Part shown: positions 1,602 through 37,063 of the stretch, piece after piece
Layout of the letters: each line of letters begins with the position of its first letter
Numbering within the stretch: the stretch's first letter is position 1
Assembly: GCA_021818465.1 (NCBI GenBank)
Contig: JAKAEA010000001.1
Span: forward strand, 454,045 to 518,044
Direction: 5' to 3'
Source of the DNA: a bacterium
Lineage (GTDB): Bacteria; Patescibacteriota; Minisyncoccia; Phycocordibacterales; JAKAEA01
Length of the DNA stretch: 64,000 bases
Made by a program: the position numbers and the translations under genes
The notes under the pieces: generated by a model
Seen by the model: only the letters and a program-made list of their open reading frames with translations
Databases searched by the model: none
Told to the model about the DNA's origin: nothing

Positions 1602-2225
1602 ATGTACACGTCTCTTAAAAAACAGTTGTCGACACTCGTAATTTTAGCTGTCGCTTTCATTGGTGTTTCTTTTTTGGCACACACATACCATTCAGAGATA
1701 TCAGTAATTATGCATAGTGGCGGCGTGTGGGGAATAATTTTTTTTATTTTTCTCACAGCAATCTTCGTCATATTTGTTATACCACTCGACATTGTTTTTC
1801 TTATACCTATAGGCGCGGTTGTCTATGGACCTATACCAACAGCTCTCATGTCTATAACCGGATGGACACTGGGAGCGGCCGCGGCCTTCGCTATCGCTCG
1901 TTACTTTGGAAAAGGTTTTGTTGGTAAACTACTAGGACTTGATAGAGTTCGCGCTATCGGTGAACGTATTCCAAAACGAAATATGTTTTGGACTGTTTTT
2001 ATACTCCGCATGCTTATATCGGTAGATATTTTGAGCTATGCACTCGGTTTGTTTAGTGATATGTCGTGGGGAATATATGTGTTCGCCACGATGCTTGGGG
2101 TTGCGCCATTCGGCTTCTATTTTGCCTATGCGGGATCGCTGCCGTTATGGTACCAGCTTGGCGCTGTCATAATCGCTATTATTATAGCCACAATAATAGT
2201 AATGAAATACACACAACGAAGATAA
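1602..2225 (+). CDS. TVP38/TMEM64 (DedA-related) family membrane protein
   Basis: Multi-TM protein with the conserved GxxxGxxxG-type VTT core (GWTLGAAAAFAIARYFGKGF...). ATG 1602 was chosen over the longer upstream extension. Confidence 0.7.
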   Translation: MYTSLKKQLSTLVILAVAFIGVSFLAHTYHSEISVIMHSGGVWGIIFFIFLTAIFVIFVIPLDIVFLIPIGAVVYGPIPTALMSITGWTLGAAAAFAIARYFGKGFVGKLLGLDRVRAIGERIPKRNMFWTVFILRMLISVDILSYALGLFSDMSWGIYVFATMLGVAPFGFYFAYAGSLPLWYQLGAVIIAIIIATIIVMKYTQRR

Positions 2226-3727: not shown

Positions 3728-4042
3728 CTATGGCACGCAACTGGTAGCAACAATTCTTAGAGCACTGTTGCCTACATCTAATGTATAAAAAGGTAAATCT
3801 ACTAAGGAATTGTGTTGTGGTGAATATAAAGGATCGGCTGTTTGAGTTAGTTGTTGCACGGCTTGACACGAAAACATTTCTGTATCTGAAAGAACATAGT
3901 TTTTTGCCTCTAAAAATTGATCACGCAACGCAGCCAACCGCTGGACACGAATAAAAAGTACAATACTAAAAATCGCACCAAGAAACATTACCCCCATAAG
4001 CGCCATGAATCCTTTTTGATAATTTTTAATTTGGTGTCGCAT
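3728..4042 (-). CDS. Pseudopilin-like minor pilin (leader MRHQIKNYQKG, then FMALMGVMFLG; lacks E+5)
   Basis: Prepilin-type N-terminus followed by a hydrophobic helix. Overlaps the next gene by 17 nt. Confidence 0.5.
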   Translation of the reverse strand: MRHQIKNYQKGFMALMGVMFLGAIFSIVLFIRVQRLAALRDQFLEAKNYVLSDTEMFSCQAVQQLTQTADPLYSPQHNSLVDLPFYTLDVGNSALRIVATSCVP

Positions 4043-4424
4043 GATAGTATTCAAAAAATATCGGCGTACGCGAATCGCCATAAGAAAATGAAAAACGTAG
4101 GTGATGTATTGTTGTTGTAGTAGCAATCGCACCGATACCACGTCCTGACGAGGTGCTGTCCACGCTGGTTTGCGGATTCGATATGGTATGCCATACGGCA
4201 GTATCAAGAATATTTTTTGCCGAAAGGTACGTGGGCGATGCGTATACCTCATCACTTATTTTTTCCGCCACAAACAGTGATTCTTCTTGTTCACGCGCAC
4301 GCTGCTCGAAAGCTATATTAGATCGAGATACTAGTAACCAAACACTGGTCACACTAACTAGTAAAATGGAGAATAGACCAATGTATACACTTAATTCCAC
4401 AAATGTAAATCCTCGACAATACAT
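4026..4424 (-). CDS. Pseudopilin (leader MYCRG, then FTFVELSVYIGLF)
   Basis: Prepilin peptidase motif with E+5. Confidence 0.55.
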   Translation of the reverse strand: MYCRGFTFVELSVYIGLFSILLVSVTSVWLLVSRSNIAFEQRAREQEESLFVAEKISDEVYASPTYLSAKNILDTAVWHTISNPQTSVDSTSSGRGIGAIATTTTIHHLRFSFSYGDSRTPIFFEYYHATPN

Positions 4425-20238: not shown

Positions 20239-21573
20239 ATGAACTCAATAGAAGAAATTTTAGCCGAACTATACGCTATTGATTCTAGCTTCAAACGCCA
20301 TGAGGTAGATTTGCGATTACTTATTAAGCGCTTACGCCTTACTAAGCCAGATTTTTCTATTGATGACGCATTCGTGCGGCGCTTGCGTTCCGATATTCTC
20401 CATGGTGGCAAACCTAAACCAATTGGCTTTTTAGTTCGCTCTTATTTTATTCAAACAGGTAAAAATCTTTTTCGCTCAAGTGCTTTTGGCACCGCTGTCG
20501 CTCTCGTATTACTTGTACCTTTAGCTTATGCCGCCCAAATTTATCATAAAAATCAGTCCGGATCGTATCAAGTAGATAACGCTTTTGTATCTCTTGGTCA
20601 ACAGCAAGAAATTTCTTATAAACCACAAAACGCTTTTGGCCCTGTCGCGCTGACTACTGTTTCCGCAACAACCGCGGCGACAAACACACCACCTTTGCCA
20701 AGTTCTTCTATTTTTGCCACCATTGCAAGTTCGAGCGCCAGCACAACTGAAATGGCTTCAGTAACAGCCACAGGAACCCCTCCTGCATATATTTTTACTG
20801 GTATAGCACCCTCATTACAAACAACCACGGCAAATGTTATAGAGACTGACACTAGCAGCGATGCTCGTTCTGAACTCCTAGATAACATTCAAAACCTCGG
20901 TTTTGAATTAACAAACATAACGTCTATTGCTAATGCTAATAACAGTGTGGGGGGAATTGAGGTTCAAGAATCTCAACCATTTGGATATATTGTTTCTATG
21001 AATTTAAACAAAATGAGTATTGCAATATCTAAAAATTCAGCAGTGTGGCCAGACGAAACATACCTACCTCTCTCTTCCGACACAAGCGCCACCGACACGA
21101 TCACGGTAGCTTTAAACTTTTTACGATCTCACAATATTGACACATCGAACTACGGACCAGCCACTCTTCTTTCAGAAAATAGTGCTAGCTCTACAGCAAC
21201 TGTTCTCTTGCCACTTATTATTCATAAACAAAATGTGTACAATCCTGATGGAAGTTTGTATGGTATGCTCGTTTCCGTTGACCAAAAATTAGAAAAAGTA
21301 ACGGGAGTAACCGGTATCTCACTTCAAAAATATACGGCGTCACCATATCCAGTTGAAAATAATTTTACAAACATTTTGAACGAACTCAACGCCACTTCAA
21401 CACTCGCAACCAGTACCGCAACTGACACACCACAACTTGAAACACCACTCGCTGGTCTTATTCGCTATACCACCAACAATTACGAATTCTTTGTACCTGG
21501 TCTTATATTCCCCGTTGCTTCCTCTACAAATTCTATTACCATATCACTCTTGAAAGACTCTGCTGGAAAATAA
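20239..21573 (+). CDS. Putative anti-sigma factor / single-pass membrane protein with an S/T-rich extracytoplasmic domain
   Basis: Immediately downstream of the ECF sigma gene (4-nt gap). It has an ~80-aa cytoplasmic N-terminus, one TM segment, and a large exported domain. Confidence 0.45.
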   Translation: MNSIEEILAELYAIDSSFKRHEVDLRLLIKRLRLTKPDFSIDDAFVRRLRSDILHGGKPKPIGFLVRSYFIQTGKNLFRSSAFGTAVALVLLVPLAYAAQIYHKNQSGSYQVDNAFVSLGQQQEISYKPQNAFGPVALTTVSATTAATNTPPLPSSSIFATIASSSASTTEMASVTATGTPPAYIFTGIAPSLQTTTANVIETDTSSDARSELLDNIQNLGFELTNITSIANANNSVGGIEVQESQPFGYIVSMNLNKMSIAISKNSAVWPDETYLPLSSDTSATDTITVALNFLRSHNIDTSNYGPATLLSENSASSTATVLLPLIIHKQNVYNPDGSLYGMLVSVDQKLEKVTGVTGISLQKYTASPYPVENNFTNILNELNATSTLATSTATDTPQLETPLAGLIRYTTNNYEFFVPGLIFPVASSTNSITISLLKDSAGK

Positions 21574-26427: not shown

Positions 26428-28353
26428 TTAAGAAAGAACTTTTAAAATCTTTTTTATGGAGCCTGTTGCCACACCACACACCGTATCAGCACCACCGTAG
26501 TAAACATATAAAGTATCGTCGCGAATCACTGCCCCGCATGGAAATACAACATTTGCGACTTGGCCTTCTTTCTCATACTTCATATGTGGTTCTAAAACCC
26601 AATCAGTAGTGCGCGCCACCACTTTTGTAGGATTCGTTGCGTCAAGAAGTGCTAAGCCAAGACGGTATTCAGAAGAATCCTCGGCAATACCATGGTACAC
26701 GAACAAATACGCTGACGTACCATCTTCCCTTTTGACGAGCATCGGTGGGGTATTGAGACCAATTTTTTTAGCATCCCACATACCGTGACGCGGTTCTAAC
26801 ATGACCGCATAGTCAGTGACCGGTTTTGGTTGCTCTATAGTAATTGAACTAACACATATAGCGTTATTGATGCGATGGAAAAAAAGTGTGCCATGATGAG
26901 CAGTGTGCATAATACACGCATCTTTATCGTCCACACCCACCGGCGAAATAAGCACTGGTTTTTCCCACGACCACTTCCCTTTTGTATTTTCCAAAAAATC
27001 AGAAACGGGAGCAGATGTCAACGCCACCGCCGGCGCTTGTGTGCCGTTAAACGCGGTGTAGCACATATACACCCTATCACCAATTCGCGTCACCCGCGGA
27101 TCTTCACAACCAGAATTTCCATTAGGAATATTTTTTAATTCAAAAGGTTCACGCGGTTCATATAGTGGCATAGTATCACGCGTTATGATACGCACACCGT
27201 CACGTGTCGTCGCATGACCAATACGTGATGTATTATCAGCAGACATGGCGCGATACAATATATGTGTTGTGCCATCTATTTCAAAAGCTGCTGGATTAAA
27301 TACTGCTTTTTTTTCCCACGCATTGTTGGTAGGTGTCAGAATAGGATTTTTAGAAAAACGAGTCAGCACCGATTCCCCCATCATTGTTGCAAGTAAATCT
27401 GCAAGACGCACTTCAGCAGCAGCACATACCGTGTCAGCAGCACCATAATAAATACGAACCATATCGCCCACCAGAAGCGCGCTCGACGGAAATACCACAT
27501 CGGGCACTGTTCCATACCGCTCGTACACCTCCTCTGGTACCAAGAGTGGCCCACGTGTTCGACCAATAATTTTTCGTGGATTTTTGAGATCAAGAAGAAT
27601 AGCTTCTACGCCAAAAATTTTTTGATGTTGACTGTAATAGTGGCGAATGTGCGAATAAAAGATGAGCCAACCGGCTGGAGTTTTCAGAGGCGTTGAACCA
27701 ATCTCAATACGTTCATCCTCAGCACGTTTAAGATTAAACGACCACTCGTCAATGTGCGTCAACCATTCACGCCAATATGTTTCTGACCACATTTGTTCTG
27801 GTGAATCAAATTGTATAAGAGCGGTTTTTGAGGGCGGTGTATCGGTATGCACGGTAAGAACGGCTGTTAATTTTCCACCGATTTTTTCAGGAAAAAGCGT
27901 CATTGCTTTAGCGTTAAACGGTGTTACGAGATGTCGTTCTTGAATTGTTTTTAAATCCTTACTCAACGCGACAGCTACACGAATACCATCAGCAGAAAAA
28001 GGAAAATGCGACAAAGCTGTATAAAAAATATAATGCGTACCGTTGAGGTACGTTACCCGCGGATCTTCACAACCATACCGTTCCCACATTTCTTGCGGCG
28101 TTATAAACGGCGTTATATCAGAAAAATGTAAGCCATCAGGACTCGCGGCTCGGCCAATTGTTGAGAGAAAAAATTGGCCACGAGCACCTGAAGTTTCAGC
28201 AAGCGGTCGTGGCTCAGCAACCGCCCGAAACACCATATCAACACGCTTCCCTATCGCAACGAGCGAAGGATTAAACGTAGCATACGATCGCCACACATCA
28301 TCTGTAGTGGGACGTACAAGTGGATTTTTCTCATAACGACGAACAACAAACAT
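26428..28353 (-). CDS. Fused tandem GH130-family protein (two complete mannoside-phosphorylase-like domains)
   Basis: Both halves carry GH130 hallmarks (FNPS/FNPAA, GCEDPRVT, YYGAADT). Confidence 0.75.
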   Translation of the reverse strand: MFVVRRYEKNPLVRPTTDDVWRSYATFNPSLVAIGKRVDMVFRAVAEPRPLAETSGARGQFFLSTIGRAASPDGLHFSDITPFITPQEMWERYGCEDPRVTYLNGTHYIFYTALSHFPFSADGIRVAVALSKDLKTIQERHLVTPFNAKAMTLFPEKIGGKLTAVLTVHTDTPPSKTALIQFDSPEQMWSETYWREWLTHIDEWSFNLKRAEDERIEIGSTPLKTPAGWLIFYSHIRHYYSQHQKIFGVEAILLDLKNPRKIIGRTRGPLLVPEEVYERYGTVPDVVFPSSALLVGDMVRIYYGAADTVCAAAEVRLADLLATMMGESVLTRFSKNPILTPTNNAWEKKAVFNPAAFEIDGTTHILYRAMSADNTSRIGHATTRDGVRIITRDTMPLYEPREPFELKNIPNGNSGCEDPRVTRIGDRVYMCYTAFNGTQAPAVALTSAPVSDFLENTKGKWSWEKPVLISPVGVDDKDACIMHTAHHGTLFFHRINNAICVSSITIEQPKPVTDYAVMLEPRHGMWDAKKIGLNTPPMLVKREDGTSAYLFVYHGIAEDSSEYRLGLALLDATNPTKVVARTTDWVLEPHMKYEKEGQVANVVFPCGAVIRDDTLYVYYGGADTVCGVATGSIKKILKVLS

Positions 28354-28358
28354 ATATA

Positions 28359-30281
28359 TTATTTTAAAATAATTGCATGGTCCTGCGTACCGCTCGATTT
28401 TCGACGATGTTTAATTTTTTCTAAAAGTTCTGCGAGTGGTGCTGTGGCTACACACACATGTCGATCTGCGCCACCATAATAAATGGAAATGTTTCCATTG
28501 TGCACAATAGAACCGCATGCATATATAACACCAGGCTTACCACTGTTTTCGTACCACATATCTGGAGCTAAAATTGGATATGCTGAACGAGCAATAACTT
28601 TTTCAGGGTGGTGCGCATCAAGTAATAAAGCACCGAGTTTGTATTTACCTGGTTCAGATTTTTCGTGACCATGATATAACACCAACCAACCAGCTGGAGT
28701 TTTTATGGGAGGCGGACCAGCACCGCGCACTCGAGCATCCCATCGACCTGATATTTCCGGTATAGTAATAGGATCAACGCTATGTATCTGCCGATGCCCC
28801 TTAGCGAGCTCCTCGAGTGTGTGCACATATTCAATGCGTACCGTTGGTGTGACGCTATGCAAAATAGCAAATTTTCCGTCAATTTTTTCAGGAAAAAGTA
28901 CCCAGTTTTTATGGCGCTGACCAGGTGGCGAAATGAGAATCGGCTCAGTCCAACGCCAACGTTTATTGAGAAAATCTTCACGATTAATTGAACTCGCACC
29001 CATGCGAATAGAATTCCAATCATCAAAAGCGGTAAAAGTTAGATATATTTTATCTTCAATTTTTACTAAACGAGGATCTTCTACGCCGCCCCAACTGCCC
29101 CCCGAAGGATAGATTGTGGGACCATATTGTCGCTCTGCAATATCAGCAATTGATCGCAAACGTGGTAAAGCAAAAACCGGCTCCGTAGATCGATCGTCAA
29201 AATTAAATCCGTCGGCACTAGACGCATACCCGAGCACTGAGAGGCCGTGCGCACCGACAGCTCGATACAATACATGCACACGACCGTTGTCATAGATAGC
29301 CGCCGGATTAAACACTGCCTCATTTTCCCATTCATAATGAGGTCGGGCTTGCAATATCGGATTCGCGTGGTGTCTATTTAAAAAACGTCGTTCGGGTGGG
29401 GTGGCAAGTAATGGTACTGATTGCGGCAGCGGAATGGTAGCACGAATAATAGAGTTGTCCGCAGCAATCCAGTAGAGTGTCATCACACGTTCTCCATTTG
29501 GTTTTTCTGCATCCGTAAATGCAACGCCGAGGGGCAGTACCGCTCCTTTCTCGCTATACACAAGACTTTCCCATACCGGCACCGGAGACCGCCAGAGTAT
29601 TTTTTTAGGATTATCCGCAGCAAAAAGTATTGCACCTGCAGCTACACGCGTGAGTATACCCTCTGTACGTGAAGCATCATATATCACCAAAATACCTTCT
29701 GGTACCCGTCGTGTGCCAATAGGTACAAGAGGGCCACTATCAAATGCATTGTGTCGTGATGTGTATAATAAATCTGGCTCTTGTTTCCAATGTCGTAGGT
29801 CGCTAGAAAACAGTGCTGTGGTAAACAATCCGGAACGATATAGCCAATGATGACGTGGTGTTGAGGTAGCAAACACAAAATCAGGTATTGCTGTAGTGGC
29901 TAACACTTCTTTTTCTAAAGGGATTTCGCTTCGTACTAACCACGAATACACATCGTGCGCGGTAGCCACAACCAGCGAACGTGTATCATGTACTTCTTTG
30001 ACATACACAAGAACCCACGAATCACCGTCAACAAAAAAACGAAATTTTGAACAGAAGCGTGGATTTTCTTTAACGCCATTAGAATAGCGAATAGAAACTT
30101 CTTTACCAAGAAGACCAAAATAGCCCGTCACCTCTTCCCAAAGAATAGTGAGGGTCACTCGCACACCGCTTTCGCGGCGAACAAAGAGACCTTGTGTAGC
30201 GTTATACGTTAAGACACCGAGTGGTTGGCAATCCTTAAAACGAGGGAGCGTATGAGAACGAGTAATTTTAGTGCGAACCAT
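28359..30281 (-). CDS. Fused double GH130-family protein (divergent N-terminal half, canonical C-terminal half)
   Basis: C-terminal half has FNPAA, GVEDPRLV and YYGGAD. The N-terminal ~300 aa is propeller-like and more diverged. Paralog of the adjacent gene. Confidence 0.7.
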   Translation of the reverse strand: MVRTKITRSHTLPRFKDCQPLGVLTYNATQGLFVRRESGVRVTLTILWEEVTGYFGLLGKEVSIRYSNGVKENPRFCSKFRFFVDGDSWVLVYVKEVHDTRSLVVATAHDVYSWLVRSEIPLEKEVLATTAIPDFVFATSTPRHHWLYRSGLFTTALFSSDLRHWKQEPDLLYTSRHNAFDSGPLVPIGTRRVPEGILVIYDASRTEGILTRVAAGAILFAADNPKKILWRSPVPVWESLVYSEKGAVLPLGVAFTDAEKPNGERVMTLYWIAADNSIIRATIPLPQSVPLLATPPERRFLNRHHANPILQARPHYEWENEAVFNPAAIYDNGRVHVLYRAVGAHGLSVLGYASSADGFNFDDRSTEPVFALPRLRSIADIAERQYGPTIYPSGGSWGGVEDPRLVKIEDKIYLTFTAFDDWNSIRMGASSINREDFLNKRWRWTEPILISPPGQRHKNWVLFPEKIDGKFAILHSVTPTVRIEYVHTLEELAKGHRQIHSVDPITIPEISGRWDARVRGAGPPPIKTPAGWLVLYHGHEKSEPGKYKLGALLLDAHHPEKVIARSAYPILAPDMWYENSGKPGVIYACGSIVHNGNISIYYGGADRHVCVATAPLAELLEKIKHRRKSSGTQDHAIILK

Positions 30282-30298
30282 TACTCGTAATCTCCTTC

Positions 30299-30646
30299 TT
30301 ATACTCGACCATATTTATCTTCAATTCTTGTAATATCATGTTCGTCAAAAAAACCGAATGAGACTTCAAGCACCTGACAATCCTCCTGCTGTCCAGCAAG
30401 ACGATGGTTCGTTTGACGGGGAATAAAAAATTCATCACCCGGCTTAGCCGTTGTTTCTTTCTCATCAATAGTGACGAGAGGTTCTCCCGAAAGCACTCGC
30501 CAAAATTCACTGCGGCCTTCGTGACGCTGCAAACTAATTGCCTCGCCCGCCTTCACCACAATGATCTTTACCGTACACGGTTCGTTAAACGCAAACTGTC
30601 GAAACGAGCCCCACGGTTTCCTGACGGTCACCGGCTCACGCATCAT
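30299..30646 (-). CDS. Standalone type II mannose-6-phosphate isomerase-like cupin
   Basis: KPWGSFRQF...ISLQRHEGRSEFWRVLSG...GDEFFIP..NHRL matches the PMI/GMP C-terminal cupin. Confidence 0.7.
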   Translation of the reverse strand: MMREPVTVRKPWGSFRQFAFNEPCTVKIIVVKAGEAISLQRHEGRSEFWRVLSGEPLVTIDEKETTAKPGDEFFIPRQTNHRLAGQQEDCQVLEVSFGFFDEHDITRIEDKYGRV

Positions 30647-30782: not shown

Positions 30783-31487
30783 TTATTCACATTTTACAAG
30801 CACACCATCGGCAACTGATTGATTCTCAACGCGAGAACCTATGTCAACAATCGCATTCATGATTTGTTCTGAAACAGTCCGAACATAGTCTCTGTTTAAC
30901 TTGCCAGATTGTCTAGAAAATAACAATGGCTCACCAAAATGTACCTGAACGTTTCCCCGTCTTAAAAAATCTCCGATGGTAGAACGGTGCGGTGGTGTAC
31001 CGCGGATATATACTGGAATTACCGGAGCACCTGATAGCAGTGCGAGTACGGCCGCTCCTTTTTTCGGAAATTTCAGGGCGCAATCAAGATCGGGAGGGCC
31101 TTCTGGAAAGATTCCTACAAGATCTCCTTCTTGCAAAGCACGAATAGCTGGTAAAAGACTAGCCAAACTTTTCACCGAAAGATCTACGGGAATCGCTCCG
31201 TCCAATTTGCAAGACCATTGTATCAAACCGCCAATAAAAGGGCGCTTGAATAAACGTCGAGCAGCAACAAAACGAATCAATCTAGAAGGACTGGCTATCA
31301 AGAGTATTGGAGGGTCAAGATCGCCCGTATGATTAGCGACAATAATTGCCGGGCCAGTTGCAGGAATTCGACATGCCCCCACAATTCGCCAACGATGCCA
31401 GAATCGGAGATATATACTGAATGCTGACAATAACACTGTTTGCAACGACGACAGAGATTTCGTGTGGTGGTTAGATGTAGTACACAT
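30783..31487 (-). CDS. Lysophospholipid acyltransferase (PlsC/LPLAT family)
   Basis: NHxxxxD box (ANHTGDLD) and FPEG box. RBS GGAGG 5 nt before ATG 31487. Confidence 0.7.
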   Translation of the reverse strand: MCTTSNHHTKSLSSLQTVLLSAFSIYLRFWHRWRIVGACRIPATGPAIIVANHTGDLDPPILLIASPSRLIRFVAARRLFKRPFIGGLIQWSCKLDGAIPVDLSVKSLASLLPAIRALQEGDLVGIFPEGPPDLDCALKFPKKGAAVLALLSGAPVIPVYIRGTPPHRSTIGDFLRRGNVQVHFGEPLLFSRQSGKLNRDYVRTVSEQIMNAIVDIGSRVENQSVADGVLVKCE

Positions 31488-31597
31488 CGTAGCCTCCTTT
31501 CTTGTAAAGAACAAAAATAACAGAATAAATATACCTAGTTATTGACAATGTGTCAATAATCTTAAATACTATATTTACTGTAACCTATCATACACAT

Positions 31598-32737
31598 ATG
31601 CGAGAATATGCGAGAAAAACACGTAATTCAAACCGAGATATATATAAAGGTATTTTTCTGTGGTGCGCGTTGCCGTTGCAAATTTTTTTTTATAACCTTT
31701 TTCATAGGCGCCGCTCTCTACACACTACCCCTAAAATTCTCATCATACACACCTGTCTTATAGGTGAATTTGCCGCTTCACTACCAGCGTTAGCAACTTT
31801 TCTGGAAAAAAATCCTGGAGCAATAGTGGACATAATGGTCTCCCCTCCTCTTAAACCGTTGGTTGAAAAAATACATGGTATTAGAAACGTATTCTGTGCT
31901 ACATCGATGTTTAATCGAACCTACGAGCACGATACGCACACGAATCAAAATTTCGATGTATATACAAAAATTATTATTCTTATTATCGGGCCAGAAGCTC
32001 AGGCCCTCTTATCAAAAATAAAAACGAATCGCATAGAACTTCGTTTTCTTGTGCTTATTCGCTATGGTCTTCACCTTGGAATTTGTTTGTTATTTCGGAG
32101 ACGTCCACGACCGTGGTCATATACTACATTTCAACTTTTAGGTCTCACACCTCAAGATTCTCTGACTATTAATTTTCATTCCTTTTTCCATTTTACTCAA
32201 TCGGATGAAGCCCGCATCCAGAGTCTACAACCTCTGCAAACTAATGAAATAAAAGTCATTATTCATACTGGCGGTGGCTGGGCAAAGTGTTGGAACAATG
32301 ATAAATGGATCGAGCTTCTAAAACAGTTGCATCATGTGCACGCTCTACGTTTTATTTTTATTGGTAATAGCAATCACGAAGAGGCTGATTATCAATATAT
32401 TGCCACTCGATTATCATTCCCAGTCTATTCACTCATAGGCAAAACAAACGTCGCTGAATCATTGCTTGTATTACGCATGAGTAATTACTTTATCGGTGTC
32501 GATAGTGGACCGAGGAATCTTGCTCACGTAGTTAACTTACCCAGTATTGTTCTCATGGGACCCGGGCCACACATTTTTACTCCTCCGAATCCTCGCGATA
32601 TTACTATTGATCGTTCCGGCGAACGTGGCCTTTATCAGATGTTTTTTCGTTCTCGCCATCCATTCATTGAAAAAATTAAACCAGCCGATGTTCTTGCCGC
32701 TTTCCGTGCGCGTATTTCTAGTGTACAAAATAATTGA
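31598..32737 (+). CDS. Glycosyltransferase family 9 (heptosyltransferase-like)
   Basis: C-terminal GT9 signature VDSGPRNLAHVVNLPSIVLMGPG. The N-terminal core starts near KILIIHTCLIG. The start is ambiguous (see findings). Confidence 0.65.
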   Translation: MREYARKTRNSNRDIYKGIFLWCALPLQIFFYNLFHRRRSLHTTPKILIIHTCLIGEFAASLPALATFLEKNPGAIVDIMVSPPLKPLVEKIHGIRNVFCATSMFNRTYEHDTHTNQNFDVYTKIIILIIGPEAQALLSKIKTNRIELRFLVLIRYGLHLGICLLFRRRPRPWSYTTFQLLGLTPQDSLTINFHSFFHFTQSDEARIQSLQPLQTNEIKVIIHTGGGWAKCWNNDKWIELLKQLHHVHALRFIFIGNSNHEEADYQYIATRLSFPVYSLIGKTNVAESLLVLRMSNYFIGVDSGPRNLAHVVNLPSIVLMGPGPHIFTPPNPRDITIDRSGERGLYQMFFRSRHPFIEKIKPADVLAAFRARISSVQNN

Positions 32738-33293
32738 GTACAATTTTATACACCCCAAATGCTAGTAGGGCCGCAAGTACCACTATAGTAATAGCTAAAT
32801 TAAAATTGTGAAGTATATTATTTATAGTTATATAAAATCGTCCAAAATAGTATCCAATGACAGTAAATACTGCCGCCTTACCAAGAGCCGCAACACTAAT
32901 AACTTGCAGATACTTCTTCATATCTGTTTTAGTCACCCCAGCAGTAAGTAGTATCGGTAGATTGGTTACATCTACGATTTTTCCCAAAAAAACAGTCGAG
33001 GCAAGATGTTTTTTATAATGTTCCTCTGCAAATTTTAAACGTTCATTTGTTACGCCCACATAATGTCCGTATCGGGGAATAATGGTGTTCCGTCCCAAAC
33101 GACCGATCCAATACAATCCTAAATCACCGATAATATCGCCGAGCACAGCAAAACCATACACAATAAAAACATTCAGAAATCCGAGCGAAGCTAAAAAAGA
33201 AGCAATGACTGTTGTGATTGGCCCTTCAATAATATCAACGGGCAAAAGAATAAAATATTTGTATGTTTCTAATAGATGAATAAATAAACTCAT
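32718..33293 (-). CDS. DedA family membrane protein
   Basis: VTT/DedA core (GDIIGDLGLYWIGR). Translationally coupled to the upstream oxidase (1-nt gap). Confidence 0.7.
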   Translation of the reverse strand: MSLFIHLLETYKYFILLPVDIIEGPITTVIASFLASLGFLNVFIVYGFAVLGDIIGDLGLYWIGRLGRNTIIPRYGHYVGVTNERLKFAEEHYKKHLASTVFLGKIVDVTNLPILLTAGVTKTDMKKYLQVISVAALGKAAVFTVIGYYFGRFYITINNILHNFNLAITIVVLAALLAFGVYKIVLNYFVH

Positions 33294-33294
33294 A

Positions 33295-35049
33295 TCAGAG
33301 TGCTTGGGACGTATCGACGTGCGTGAGCGCCTGTTCCCAAGTAACACCAACTTTTTTGTGTGGATTAAAGATTCCATCAGGATCAAAAACGTGCTTAGTT
33401 TTCTCAAACAGCGCGTACACCTCCGGGCCATACATTTCTTTCAAAAAACCAGAACGAACGAGACCGTCATTGTGTTCGCCTGTGATGGAACCGTGATACT
33501 GGAAAATAAGTTCGTTAACCTTAGGGGCCAATTCAGCAATCATCTGCGTTGATTTCGGATTGTGGAGATCCATAAGCGGAATGATGTGAAAATTACCGTC
33601 GCCAACATGGCCAGCAATGGTGTAGGTCATCGGATATTTGTCCAAGATAGCATAGAGCTTCGGTAAAAATTCTGGCAAATATTTTGGCGCCACCACAAAG
33701 TCATCAATAAACGGTGCGGTACGCAAACCTTTAACATGTTGACGGAGCATATTGAAGCTCTCACGTCGAATGGTCCAGAATTTTTGCACTTCACGCGGCG
33801 ACTGAGTGATACGCGACGGTGCACTAAACTCTTGCTTGGCAAATTCATGCACACTGGCTTGGGCTTTTTGAGCCGCAGCAAGTGCTGCCGCATCATTGTC
33901 AGCAGTAAACTCAGCCATTAAAACAAGTTTGGGCATACCGCCAGTGAGCACCGCCCAAAATTCAGGTAAAAATTGAATTGCCAAATTTATAAGATTCCCC
34001 TTCATTCGGTGAATCATGATTGGAAAAAACTTTACTGCAAGTTTAAAAGTATGATCGTCGTACGATTCCAAACTTTCTGGTTTAAATTGCAAAAGATGGT
34101 TGGTGATATCACCGAGACGATTCATATCTTTTAAGAACAGGACGAGTAAGCGCGAATGCGTACGCGGTCGAATCAAGCGAACCTTAATTTTTGTGACAAA
34201 ACCAAGCGTGCCTTGGGAACCAACGAGTAATTTGGTGATATCAAAAACGCCCCGCTTTGTGTCGAGTACATTCCACAGATAATAGCCAGCAGAATTTTTA
34301 CTCACTGGCGGCTTGGCCTTTTTCAAAAGTACATCGTTTTTTTCCACCAGCTCACTCATTTGTCGATACACTTCCCCTTCCAAGGTTTGAAGTTTTTTCT
34401 TCTCCTCTAACTCGACAAGCGAGAGCGGTTTAAACACGTACTCATTACCATCGCGTAAAACCATATGTAGTTCCAATACATAATCTTCTGTTTTTCCATA
34501 GAGTAAGGTCTTCTCACCACCGGAATTATTTGAAACCATACCACCAATCGTGCACAGTTCTCGTGATGCTGGATACGACGGTAAAATCATATCCCATTTG
34601 AGCGTAGCCTTATCGAAATCACGAAAATACACCCCGGGTTCAGTAATGGCCCAACCAGCAGTCGTCACGTCGCTCGTCACGCCATCATGAGCTCCCTCAG
34701 TGGTCAATTTTCCTAACTCTTCATGGATTTCGCCAATATGATTAAAGTACCGTGTAAAATCAACGGAAATTGATGATGTAAGTGGCCCACCGCTCATATC
34801 CGTTCCTGCCGAGCGCGCCGTGAGGGAGACGTCGACACCGGCTTTCTTTTGGGTCTCGGCCCACCGTACCAACCGCTTCACATCGTCGGTATGTTTAGGA
34901 AACACTACTAATGTTGGTTTTATAATAAAAAGACTAGCATCTTTACTGTGGCTCGTTAAGGTTTTTTCATCGCTGGCAATATCTCCTTCAAAACCTGTAT
35001 CCTTGATAGCTTCAGTAAAGCGAGCGGACATATCGTCGGAAGAGTTCAT
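33295..35049 (-). CDS. FAD-linked oxidase (PCMH-type FAD-binding domain plus C-terminal oxidase domain), 584 aa
   Basis: FAD-binding segment ...VVFPKHTDDVKRLVRWAETQKKAGVDVSLTARSAGTDMSGGPL... Confidence 0.75.
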   Translation of the reverse strand: MNSSDDMSARFTEAIKDTGFEGDIASDEKTLTSHSKDASLFIIKPTLVVFPKHTDDVKRLVRWAETQKKAGVDVSLTARSAGTDMSGGPLTSSISVDFTRYFNHIGEIHEELGKLTTEGAHDGVTSDVTTAGWAITEPGVYFRDFDKATLKWDMILPSYPASRELCTIGGMVSNNSGGEKTLLYGKTEDYVLELHMVLRDGNEYVFKPLSLVELEEKKKLQTLEGEVYRQMSELVEKNDVLLKKAKPPVSKNSAGYYLWNVLDTKRGVFDITKLLVGSQGTLGFVTKIKVRLIRPRTHSRLLVLFLKDMNRLGDITNHLLQFKPESLESYDDHTFKLAVKFFPIMIHRMKGNLINLAIQFLPEFWAVLTGGMPKLVLMAEFTADNDAAALAAAQKAQASVHEFAKQEFSAPSRITQSPREVQKFWTIRRESFNMLRQHVKGLRTAPFIDDFVVAPKYLPEFLPKLYAILDKYPMTYTIAGHVGDGNFHIIPLMDLHNPKSTQMIAELAPKVNELIFQYHGSITGEHNDGLVRSGFLKEMYGPEVYALFEKTKHVFDPDGIFNPHKKVGVTWEQALTHVDTSQAL

Positions 35050-35068
35050 ATGCTAGTATTATAGCACA
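35050..35068. promoter_or_regulatory. 19-nt divergent region with face-to-face -10 boxes (TATTAT on plus; TGnTATAAT on minus), implying two leaderless transcripts
   Basis: Sequence CATATGCTAGTATTATAGCACAATG: the plus-strand -10 ends 7 nt before ATG 35069, and the minus-strand extended -10 ends 8 nt before ATG 35049. Confidence 0.4.
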
Positions 35069-35680
35069 ATGTCTGTTTCGTTTCTTTTTTCGATTTTCAA
35101 CTTTGTGCCGGCAATTAAATATCCTCTTATTATGCTCGGCGCTCTTTTAGTTGGGCCACTTATGACGATGATAAGTGGCATTTTTGTTCGGCTAAATTTT
35201 GTTGACTTGATCCCTGTTTACTTTACTCTCATTGTTGCTGATATCATCGGCGACATCGGTTGGTATTGGATTGGCCGACGCTGGGGGCGACCATTTATTG
35301 CAAAATTCGGACGTTTTTTTTCTATTACCGAACAACACGTGGTAACACTGGAGAAATTTTTTCATCGATACCATGAGCGTATTTTAATCATTTCAAAACT
35401 AACGATGGGTTTCGGTTTTGCTGCAGTAACACTATTTACTGCTGGTTTCAGCCGTGTTCCCTTCTCTCGTTATATTCTCATTAATGCTATTGGTGAATTT
35501 TTCTGGACAGCAATCTGGCTTGCTATAGGTTTTTTCTTTACCGATCTCTTTATACGTTTAAACAATATTTTGAGTCAAATTACCGTTGTCGTCGCTGCAC
35601 TCATTTTTTTCGCTGCACTCATTGGGGTCGGCAACTATCTTCGCCATCGTTTTATTGATCATAATCATAGTATCGCTTAA
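35069..35680 (+). CDS. DedA family membrane protein (tandem paralog 1)
   Basis: GDIGWYWIGRRWGRPFIAKFGRFFSITE... Highly similar to the next gene. Confidence 0.7.
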   Translation: MSVSFLFSIFNFVPAIKYPLIMLGALLVGPLMTMISGIFVRLNFVDLIPVYFTLIVADIIGDIGWYWIGRRWGRPFIAKFGRFFSITEQHVVTLEKFFHRYHERILIISKLTMGFGFAAVTLFTAGFSRVPFSRYILINAIGEFFWTAIWLAIGFFFTDLFIRLNNILSQITVVVAALIFFAALIGVGNYLRHRFIDHNHSIA

Positions 35681-35682
35681 TC

Positions 35683-36282
35683 ATGTCACCTGCTATTCTT
35701 TTTGGTCTTGTACCAATTATTAAATACCCACTGATTATTCTCGGGGCTATGTTTGAGGGACCAATTATTATGATGCTTGCGGGTGTTTTTATACGACTTA
35801 ATTTTATTGATCTTATCCCCGCTTTTTTTGCCCTTATGGTTGGCGATCTTATCGGCGACATCGGCTGGTACTGGATTGGTCGACGCTGGGGACGACCGTT
35901 CATCGCGAAATTCGGACGGTTTTTTTCTATCACTGAAAAACATGTGATAACGTTGGAGAAATTTTTCCACTTATATCATGAAAAAATTCTTATTGTCTCA
36001 AAACTAACGACCGGCTTTGGTTTCGCTCCTTTGGTGTTATTTACTGCCGGACTCTCCAACACTCCCTTCCGCCGATACCTACTTATCAATTCCATTGGAG
36101 AACTATTTTGGACAGGATTATTGGTAAGTATTGGTTTTTTCTTTACAGATTTATATGTACACGTTAACAATCTTCTTGGCCGAGTGGCAATGTTTGCTGG
36201 AATTGTTATTATAGCGATAATAATATTCGGTTTTGGAAAATATATTCGTTCAAAAATTCTTAAAAAATATGAAGGAGACTAA
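35683..36282 (+). CDS. DedA family membrane protein (tandem paralog 2)
   Basis: Near-duplicate of 35069..35680, with collinear identity along the whole length. Confidence 0.7.
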   Translation: MSPAILFGLVPIIKYPLIILGAMFEGPIIMMLAGVFIRLNFIDLIPAFFALMVGDLIGDIGWYWIGRRWGRPFIAKFGRFFSITEKHVITLEKFFHLYHEKILIVSKLTTGFGFAPLVLFTAGLSNTPFRRYLLINSIGELFWTGLLVSIGFFFTDLYVHVNNLLGRVAMFAGIVIIAIIIFGFGKYIRSKILKKYEGD

Positions 36283-37063
36283 TGTACACAGCCCCTCTGT
36301 TTCTATAATCATAGCTGCATATAATGAAGAAAAGTATATTGGCGCCACTATTGAAGCGGTACTAGCATTAGCATATCCAAATTTTAACGTGATTGTTGTT
36401 GATAATAATTCGCACGATGGCACGGCAGCTATTATTAAAAAGTATCCTGCCGTTACGTACATTTTAGAAAAGAAACCGGGAGTACAATTTGCCCGGGAAG
36501 CTGGCCAAGAAGCCACCGAGAGCGACATTATCGCCTTTTTAGACGCTGACTGCTTACCGCCACGTGATTGGTTAACACGTTGTGTTGCGCATTTACACAC
36601 TGGCGCAGTGGCGGTAGCGGGACCATACTATTATTACGATAATGGTAAAATTTTTGGAGCAATAAGTCTTTTTATTCAACAAATATGCTACACTCCAACC
36701 CACTACCTCCTACAGTGGTTGCACATTGGTGGTACTATGGCCTTTGGTAATGTTGTGGTAACAAAAAAAGCTCTGCGCGCTATCGGCGGTATTAACACAG
36801 AAATTGTTTTTTATGGAGACGACACTAATTTTGCCAAGCAACTTACGACTGTTGGCCATATTATTTATGATCCGCACCTCATCGTATATAGTTCCGCTCG
36901 CCGTTTTAAAGAATTAGGTATCCTGCGAACATTGAGTTTATACTGGTGGTTTTTTGTTCGAGAGGCAATCTTGAAAAGTTTTTTTAAGAAATCAGCATCA
37001 GTGAATAAACGTGCCGGCGAGCGCAAGCAGGTAACTCCAACCGCTCCGGACACCTTCAACTAA
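36269..37063 (+). CDS. Glycosyltransferase family 2 (polyprenyl-phosphate sugar synthase-like)
   Basis: VSIIIAAYNEE...VVDNNSHDGT...DAD (DxD motif). RBS AAGGAGA upstream. Overlaps the preceding DedA gene by 14 nt. Confidence 0.75.
   Translation: MKETNVHSPSVSIIIAAYNEEKYIGATIEAVLALAYPNFNVIVVDNNSHDGTAAIIKKYPAVTYILEKKPGVQFAREAGQEATESDIIAFLDADCLPPRDWLTRCVAHLHTGAVAVAGPYYYYDNGKIFGAISLFIQQICYTPTHYLLQWLHIGGTMAFGNVVVTKKALRAIGGINTEIVFYGDDTNFAKQLTTVGHIIYDPHLIVYSSARRFKELGILRTLSLYWWFFVREAILKSFFKKSASVNKRAGERKQVTPTAPDTFN

Follow-up and report, generated by a model that had tools for sequence, protein, structure and literature searches.

A conserved DedA-GT2 gene pair of Patescibacteria and the probably mosaic locus around it

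The closest described relatives of the DedA proteins treated here are the undecaprenyl phosphate (Und-P) flippases of COG0586, such as UptA (Bacillus subtilis YngC), with which they share the VTT fold and its two re-entrant helices. The published arguments for a role in Und-P recycling are that DedA genes adjoin or are fused to PAP2 and that UptA is co-regulated with a GT2/GT-C glycosylation pathway (bioRxiv 10.1101/2022.02.03.479048; PMC10127716). An arginine pair at the second re-entrant helix (R112/R118 in UptA, R130/R136 in YghB) is required for function (PMC10127716). In the yngABC/ykcBC regulon of B. subtilis, which comprises the GT2 YkcC, the GtrA-like YngA, the GT-C YkcB and UptA, a DedA protein is also tied to a carrier GT2. 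Operons for glycans linked to undecaprenyl pyrophosphate (Und-PP), as in O-antigen, capsule and protein glycosylation, are initiated by WbaP or PglC. A literature search on DedA in the Candidate Phyla Radiation found nothing relevant. The locus analyzed here spans positions 30783-37063 of a stretch of 64,000 nucleotides (nt) from a patescibacterial genome, in the following called the window. Its seven open reading frames (ORFs) encode, according to Pfam and NCBIfam, a PlsC-like acyltransferase, a GT9 glycosyltransferase, three DedA proteins (DedA1 to DedA3), an oxidase of 584 amino acids (aa) linked to flavin adenine dinucleotide (FAD), and a GT2 glycosyltransferase. With moderate confidence, the locus is explained as a mosaic and not as one pathway. 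In this explanation, the genes that function together are those of the operon dedA2-dedA3-GT2 (35069-37063), an instance of a Patescibacteria-wide module. The operon probably serves lipid-carrier-linked sugar assembly. The PlsC-like acyltransferase and GT9 would be strain-variable accessory genes, with DedA1 varying along with them, and the oxidase a resident housekeeping gene, around which variable glycan and lipid genes accumulated in one clade.

The operon consists of three genes. Their refined coordinates, like those of the other genes of the locus, are the public gene calls for the 540-kb contig to which the window belongs (NCBI GCA_027341405.1, DAIEME010000001.1, a metagenome-assembled genome).

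35069-35680, plus strand: DedA2, 203 aa, opens the operon (PF09335, 47.6 bits, cut-off 33.9)
35683-36282, plus strand: DedA3, 199 aa, Patescibacteria DedA subfamily (PF09335, 52.1 bits, cut-off 33.9)
36269-37063, plus strand: GT2 glycosyltransferase, 264 aa (PF00535, 110 bits)

Gene content and family assignments are direct observations, as are the neighborhood statistics and motif states reported below. The junctions were read from the sequence. Between DedA2 and DedA3 there is a gap of 2 nt, and GT2 begins within DedA3, with 14 nt in common. This overlap had been stated in a first-pass annotation of the stretch, and all seven ORFs listed there are present with Pfam families that agree with the claimed domains. 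The size of the locus had been overstated as ten kb, the actual span being 6.3 kb. DedA2 and DedA3, described as near-duplicates, are tandem paralogues with only 62% aa identity, including a 300-nt stretch at 75% DNA identity. DedA1 is more distant from both (27-29% identity).

Across Patescibacteria, the pair of a DedA gene and a following GT2 gene is strongly conserved, and the two genes overlap in most cases. DedA2 and DedA3 belong to a small subfamily, with 168 clusters (50% identity) as matches at E<=1e-30. Its motifs are EGP, GDxxGD and SK(L/I)TxGFGF, the last of which is conserved across the subfamily. For the neighborhood analysis, 80 metagenomic loci centered on DedA2/3-type genes were fetched. 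Pfam detected a GT2 gene directly downstream in 53 of 64 loci, and all 53 gene products also match a hidden Markov model of the window GT2 family. The pairing occurs in 35 of 38 DedA clusters (70% identity). Most DedA/GT2 junctions overlap (36 of 50), usually by 4 nt, and 45 of the 50 lie within 20 nt. As a background value, a GT2 gene adjoins an unrelated gene, that of the oxidase, in just 3 of 150 cases. The nearly constant translational coupling to a GT2 has not been described for UptA, and the link in the B. subtilis yngABC/ykcBC regulon is a co-regulation, whereas an overlapping gene pair is present here. A GT2 homologue from Flavisolibacter nicotianae, which does not belong to the Patescibacteria, has no adjoining DedA gene in this single case. 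DedA-GT2 fusions were absent among 150 subfamily representatives; the long proteins in this set carry, besides DedA, an alpha/beta-hydrolase domain or a metallo-beta-lactamase fold. P0442 and P0447 (477-479 aa) combine a DedA1-like VTT domain with a C-terminal alpha/beta-hydrolase domain, and in P0448 a VTT domain is joined to a domain of metallo-beta-lactamase fold. Such architectures hint that some DedA subfamilies may work with lipid-hydrolysing enzymes.

Beyond the pair, further genes recur around DedA. PAP2_C or PAP2 genes are located upstream of the DedA2/3-type gene in 12-16 of 65 loci, mostly in divergent orientation; an oxidase gene has this position in just 2 of 65. A second GT2 was found at positions ±2 and +3 in 22 of 127 cases, and Bac_transf, PAP2_C and DsbA in 8 cases each. 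The gene order of a divergent PAP2 gene followed by DedA-GT2-GT2-Bac_transf was verified in several loci, with a Bac_transf protein of the WbaP type (445-465 aa). Where at least 3.5 kb of downstream DNA was available, Bac_transf follows DedA-GT2-GT2 in 9 of 29 loci. The DedA loci (0.45 Mb) contain 12 copies of it, the oxidase loci (1.34 Mb) one. Because DedA-GT2 recurs with a second GT2, a WbaP-type Bac_transf and PAP2, a minimal polyprenyl-(pyro)phosphate-linked glycan pathway is suggested. The adjacency of PAP2 and glycosylation genes is the same genomic argument as for UptA, applied at the family level. The compact operon was observed in L104-L107, L117, L121, L141, L156 and L157 of the fetched loci, about 1.2-3.7 kb downstream of DedA, and in L107 both GT2s are fused (531 aa).

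The module differs from the two described pathways. Neither a GtrA-like nor a GT-C gene was found among the DedA neighbors, and the window GT2 has no predicted transmembrane helices, in contrast to the composition of the yngABC/ykcBC regulon. The window lacks the Bac_transf gene of WbaP/PglC-initiated operons, in which DedA as first gene would be unusual. Wzx, Wzy and ligase genes did not turn up among the three genes on either side of DedA. A lipid-linked glycan pathway had been proposed in the first-pass annotation for the locus as a whole; it is plausible for DedA2-DedA3-GT2 on the strength of the conserved pair, and not for all seven genes.

The evidence supports the view that the operon works like a carrier-lipid glycosylation module. 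We infer, conditionally, a carrier as lipid substrate, transport in one of two directions and a sugar as load: a DedA protein co-translated with a GT2 would shift the lipid carrier over the membrane, either the free carrier returning or the loaded carrier outbound. All three DedA proteins have their best NCBIfam match in UptA (NF052604), with scores of 65.9, 52.3 and 58.9 bits and a cut-off of 250. In the structure model of DedA3 (AlphaFold, mean pLDDT 86.8), helices are interrupted at E25 and at residues 110-114, which is consistent with a position of E25 and K107 at or close to the tips of the two re-entrant helices. The model of the GT2 (mean pLDDT 91.7) shows a soluble protein of GT-A fold. 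It has a single C-terminal amphipathic helix (residues 218-238) but no pair of transmembrane helices, and a DAD motif is present. An earlier description of this enzyme as similar to polyprenyl-phosphate sugar synthases is not specifically supported. The corresponding NCBIfam models matched far below cut-off (ArnC, E 1e-5; Halo DPH transferase, E 9e-5; PpgS, E 1e-3).

Several results weigh against a carrier-lipid module. In an alignment of the window DedA proteins with Escherichia coli YghB and YqjA, at only 17-19% identity, the position of YghB R130 is occupied by Lys (K107 in DedA3). At the position of R136, DedA2 and DedA3 have Gly or Phe and DedA1 has Thr or Asn, none of them basic. Tyr or Lys replaces E39 of the acidic pair (YghB E39, D51), of which DedA1 and DedA3 retain one Glu in the EGP motif, two residues off the D51 position. 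DedA2 has Val in place of the EGP Glu and hence no tip Glu. Because the DedA2/3 subfamily is without the arginine pair and keeps just one Glu of the acidic pair, Und-P flipping is not assured. With Lys plus a GFGF loop instead of the arginine pair, the subfamily would not qualify as UptA-type flippases by either of two sets of defining residues, as judged from an alignment of such low identity. Which acceptor the GT2 uses cannot be told from its matches: PDB sequences searched with a profile gave generic GT-A entries only, and Foldseek matches in the PDB are equally generic, with TM-scores of ~0.6 to WrtF, PcManGT, K4CP and ArnC alike. In the 64-kb window, where the module consists of nothing but its core, with DedA in duplicate (DedA, DedA, GT2), no GT-C, Bac_transf, PAP2 of the associated type or second GT2 is encoded. 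Thus the UptA-like association with PAP2 and glycosylation genes holds for the subfamily and not in the window itself. Genes in the fetched loci were called by a simple longest-ORF heuristic.

The loss of the arginine pair bears on two other interpretations of the DedA-GT2 pair. The first, which is unlikely, is that the pair makes and translocates a non-polyprenyl glycolipid, e.g. a glycosyl-diacylglycerol on host-scavenged lipids, with DedA as a glycolipid or phospholipid scramblase. A DedA subfamily without the phosphate-binding arginines would fit this role, and in 23 of 64 members the GT2 also matches PF13506 (GT21, ceramide glucosyltransferase type). Moreover, a PlsC-like lysolipid acyltransferase is encoded in the same locus, DedA1-like proteins fused to alpha/beta-hydrolases exist, and some DedA members have been published as phospholipid transporters (PetA, PMC10193950). 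The recurrence of the module with PAP2 and a WbaP-type polyprenyl-phosphate phosphoglycosyltransferase argues against a glycolipid function, as does the best NCBIfam match of the three DedA proteins, which is UptA and not a TVP38/PetA-type model. The second interpretation stays with the carrier and assigns DedA the outbound step. The arginine pair is thought to bind the carrier phosphate, and its loss together with the near-constant coupling to a small GT2 leads to the tentative and rather doubtful proposal that the DedA2/3 subfamily is an exporter dedicated to the glycosylated lipid intermediate of the partner GT2, not a recycler of free Und-P. If so, an exporter DedA would replace the Wzx/GtrA flippases, none of which were seen beside these minimal operons, and a new substrate class for DedA proteins would be added. 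In that case DedA2, which lacks the tip glutamate, and DedA3, which has it, could function as a heterodimer.

Apart from the carrier-lipid operon, four genes of the locus and one distant VTT gene were characterized.

1602-2225, plus strand: fourth VTT-domain protein (PF09335, 56 bits)
30783-31487, minus strand: PlsC/LPLAT-family acyltransferase, 234 aa (PF01553, 67 bits, cut-off 23)
31598-32737, plus strand: GT9-family GT-B glycosyltransferase, 379 aa (PF01075, 61.7 bits, cut-off 22)
32718-33293, minus strand: DedA1, 191 aa, divergent DedA paralogue (PF09335, 37.0 bits, cut-off 33.9)
33295-35049, minus strand: FAD-linked flavoenzyme similar to D-2-hydroxyacid dehydrogenases, 584 aa (PF01565, 87 bits; PF02913, 149 bits)

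On profile and motif evidence, the oxidase is a member of the GlcD/LDHD/D2HGDH/YdiJ group of D-2-hydroxyacid dehydrogenases. Its best NCBIfam match is the model of the D-2-hydroxyglutarate dehydrogenase YdiJ (277 bits; residues 5-580, model positions 12-554 of 1018). This score is below the equivalog cut-off of 1350 bits, and the protein stays below every NCBIfam equivalog cut-off. Residues 11-565 align in BLASTP with residues 18-538 of E. coli YdiJ (25% identity, E 4e-57). The oxidase ends at the equivalent of YdiJ residue 538 of 1018 and is without the ~480-aa C-terminal half, which in YdiJ carries Fe-S/CCG domains. A profile built from 27 homologues was used for a ranking of PDB entries. 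Glycolate oxidase (E 1.9e-35), LctD (E 2e-33), LDHD (E 1e-31) and D2HGDH (E 9e-23) each matched in three stretches that cover the catalytic C-terminus. The residues H481, H488, E525 and H526 are invariant in the 27 homologues. They are part of the motifs HxGDGNxH and GEH, which align with the same motifs of YdiJ and of glycolate oxidase 9qgz. In the structures of D2HGDH and LDHD, these motifs provide the metal-binding His, His and Glu and the catalytic His. The PF01565 plus PF02913 architecture and the His-His-Glu-His motifs are common to the oxidase and E. coli YdiJ (PMC9504171). As part of the mosaic explanation, the enzyme would be a soluble D-2-hydroxyacid dehydrogenase that depends on FAD, is built like the N-terminal half of YdiJ and has no Fe-S domain. 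Its substrate is probably D-lactate, D-2-hydroxyglutarate or glycolate.

Two other affiliations of the oxidase were considered. It had been suggested to be an ether-lipid enzyme resembling AGPS, the alkyl-dihydroxyacetone-phosphate synthase, as a partner of the PlsC-like acyltransferase encoded 1.8 kb away. AGPS has the same PF01565 plus PF02913 architecture and matches the oxidase profile at E 5e-13, but this is below all D-hydroxyacid dehydrogenases (1e-35 to 1e-23), and the best stretch (profile positions 31-171) is the FAD-binding domain and not the catalytic C-terminal domain. AGPS chains were absent from the single-sequence PDB matches of the oxidase at E<=1e-5. Given also the dehydrogenase-type motifs HxGDGNxH and GEH and the absence of a PlsC homologue near the oxidase in 85 oxidase loci, the ether-lipid assignment has next to no probability and was rejected. 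A DprE1-like identity was also dismissed. DprE1 matches at E 1e-3 in positions 47-178 only, again within the FAD-binding domain, and the C-terminal domain of the oxidase is PF02913 with His-His-Glu-His intact.

The oxidase is widespread, with at least 8000 homologues and matches in at least 592 species-level Patescibacteria genomes. For its neighborhoods, 80 species-level loci were fetched, and 150 immediate neighbors in L006-L085 (75-78 species) were scanned with Pfam; the total of fetched loci is 165, of which 85 are oxidase loci. DedA and GT2 each account for 3 of the 150 neighbors. A conserved partner was not detected across these species, the most common neighbor being a HAD hydrolase (9 of 150). 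Some of these HAD/Cof-type hydrolases have weak PMM matches. Cupredoxin-like and AIG2/GGACT proteins recur beside the oxidase (4-5 of 150), and in the Andersenbacteria-type loci L041, L051 and L053 an ORF of ~1060 aa on the opposite strand abuts the end of the oxidase gene. Close relatives of the window differ in what surrounds the oxidase. In the closest relative, L001 (oxidase 90% identical), GT2-DedA replaces PlsC-GT9-DedA1. L003 (81% identical) has nothing on this side and DedA-GT2-GT2 on the other. In L005 (65% identical), neither DedA nor GT2 adjoins the oxidase, the nearest GT2 is located ~7.5 kb downstream, and the order MraY-FtsW-MurG-GltX-…-oxidase is kept. The oxidase is regarded as a resident gene because its neighbors vary among relatives and DedA and GT2 are rare beside it elsewhere; in this clade, glycan genes would have been inserted around it. 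It falls into the glycolate/D-lactate/D-2-hydroxyglutarate dehydrogenase group, and in nearly all other species neither DedA nor GT2 is linked to it; these are the two outcomes that the first-pass annotation had named as contradicting its proposal.

This proposal joined all seven genes in one dedicated envelope glycoconjugate pathway. In such a pathway, a DprE1-like oxidase would modify a lipid-linked sugar, and GT9 and PlsC would work on the same product. The tight packing of the locus fits such a pathway. The stop codon of the oxidase and the start codon of DedA1 form a TGA-t-ATG junction with a 1-nt spacer, so that the translational coupling claimed earlier is plausible. The start codons of the oxidase and DedA2 diverge at a distance of 19 nt, followed by the 2-nt gap and the overlap of the operon. 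Furthermore, the order GT9-DedA1-oxidase-DedA-GT2 recurs in L086, the sole other such contig among the 165 loci. Against the mosaic explanation, a DedA1-type gene directly follows the oxidase also in L011 and L045, two distant species, and the tight position of the oxidase between DedA genes in this clade leaves room for a weak functional link to DedA. A link between the oxidase and DedA1-type genes was not claimed on L011 and L045, since two cases compare with ~0.3-1 expected by chance in a rough estimate. Across the ~75 other species the oxidase is unlinked to DedA and GT2, the closest relative has neither PlsC nor GT9, and the similarity to DprE1 is limited to the FAD-binding domain. A single pathway of seven genes is therefore highly improbable, and the oxidase was wrongly included in it.

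In the window clade (window, L001, L003 and L008), the oxidase and the adjoining DedA genes are divergent, with start codons 19-45 nt apart. Because of this short distance, their promoters must overlap mutually or lie inside the coding sequence of the neighbor.

PlsC and GT9 probably stand outside the glycan module. The PlsC-like protein is 25% identical to E. coli PlsC (E 1e-7), and its HX4D (NHTGDLD) and FPEG (IFPEG) motifs align with the motifs of this enzyme. Its best matches are lysophospholipid acyltransferase domains, and such an activity fits lipid salvage by Patescibacteria. A PlsC homologue near the oxidase or DedA was not present in the 165 loci (1.87 Mb). The GT9 reaches 28-50 bits with the heptosyltransferase equivalogs of the RfaC/RfaF/RfaQ type, below all cut-offs (135-569 bits). 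Among the 165 loci, GT9 was found in just the window and L086 and is missing in L001 and L003. The absence of both genes from the closest relative makes their earlier placement in the pathway probably wrong. PlsC and GT9 diverge from an intergenic region (31515-31597) in which two promoter-like sites stand back to back. The minus-strand site reads TTGACA-17-TATATT (11 of 12 matches), the plus-strand site TTGACA-17-AATACT (10 of 12 matches). A terminator-like hairpin follows PlsC at 30750-30729. In a scan for promoters and terminators, counts were no higher than in shuffled sequence, and the PlsC/GT9 intergenic pair was the sole near-consensus case.

The seven genes are located between a cupin gene with two GH130 genes and gltX. 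The surroundings are typical of Patescibacteria and comprise a dcw-type cluster (MraY, FtsW, MurG, PBPs, Mur ligase), type IV pilus genes and aminoacyl-tRNA synthetases. The tandem GH130 proteins (26428-28353 and 28359-30281) have ~640 aa each, about twice the length of the GH130 profile of 320 positions. The 115-aa cupin near this pair (region 26428-30646) is related to the C-terminal domain of mannose-6-phosphate isomerase. The GH130-GH130-cupin trio is kept beside the locus in L001 and L003. Beyond this synteny in close relatives, no tie of the GH130 and cupin genes to the DedA-GT2 module was detected. The fourth gene of the DedA superfamily, previously noted at 1602, is real. In the alignment, its product groups with E. 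coli YdjX/YdjZ (TVP38-like); an S24 peptidase gene is located 3' of it, and there is no adjoining GT2. No Pfam family matches the ORFs 20239-21573 (444 aa) and 3728-4255 (175 aa) at E<=1e-3.

The analysis removes a misleading lead, as the oxidase is a common D-2-hydroxyacid-dehydrogenase-type enzyme of Patescibacteria and not an envelope enzyme of the DprE1 or AGPS type. What is new is a DedA subfamily, specific to Patescibacteria, that lacks the arginine pair and is firmly wired to a GT2. DedA proteins have been recognized as lipid-carrier flippases only recently, and bacteria keep several paralogues of them. The GT2-linked subfamily represents a compact two-gene system for testing DedA substrate choice. 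Patescibacteria have very small genomes, largely uncharacterized envelopes and an epibiotic lifestyle, and the DedA-GT2 module points to a surface glycan pathway in these bacteria.

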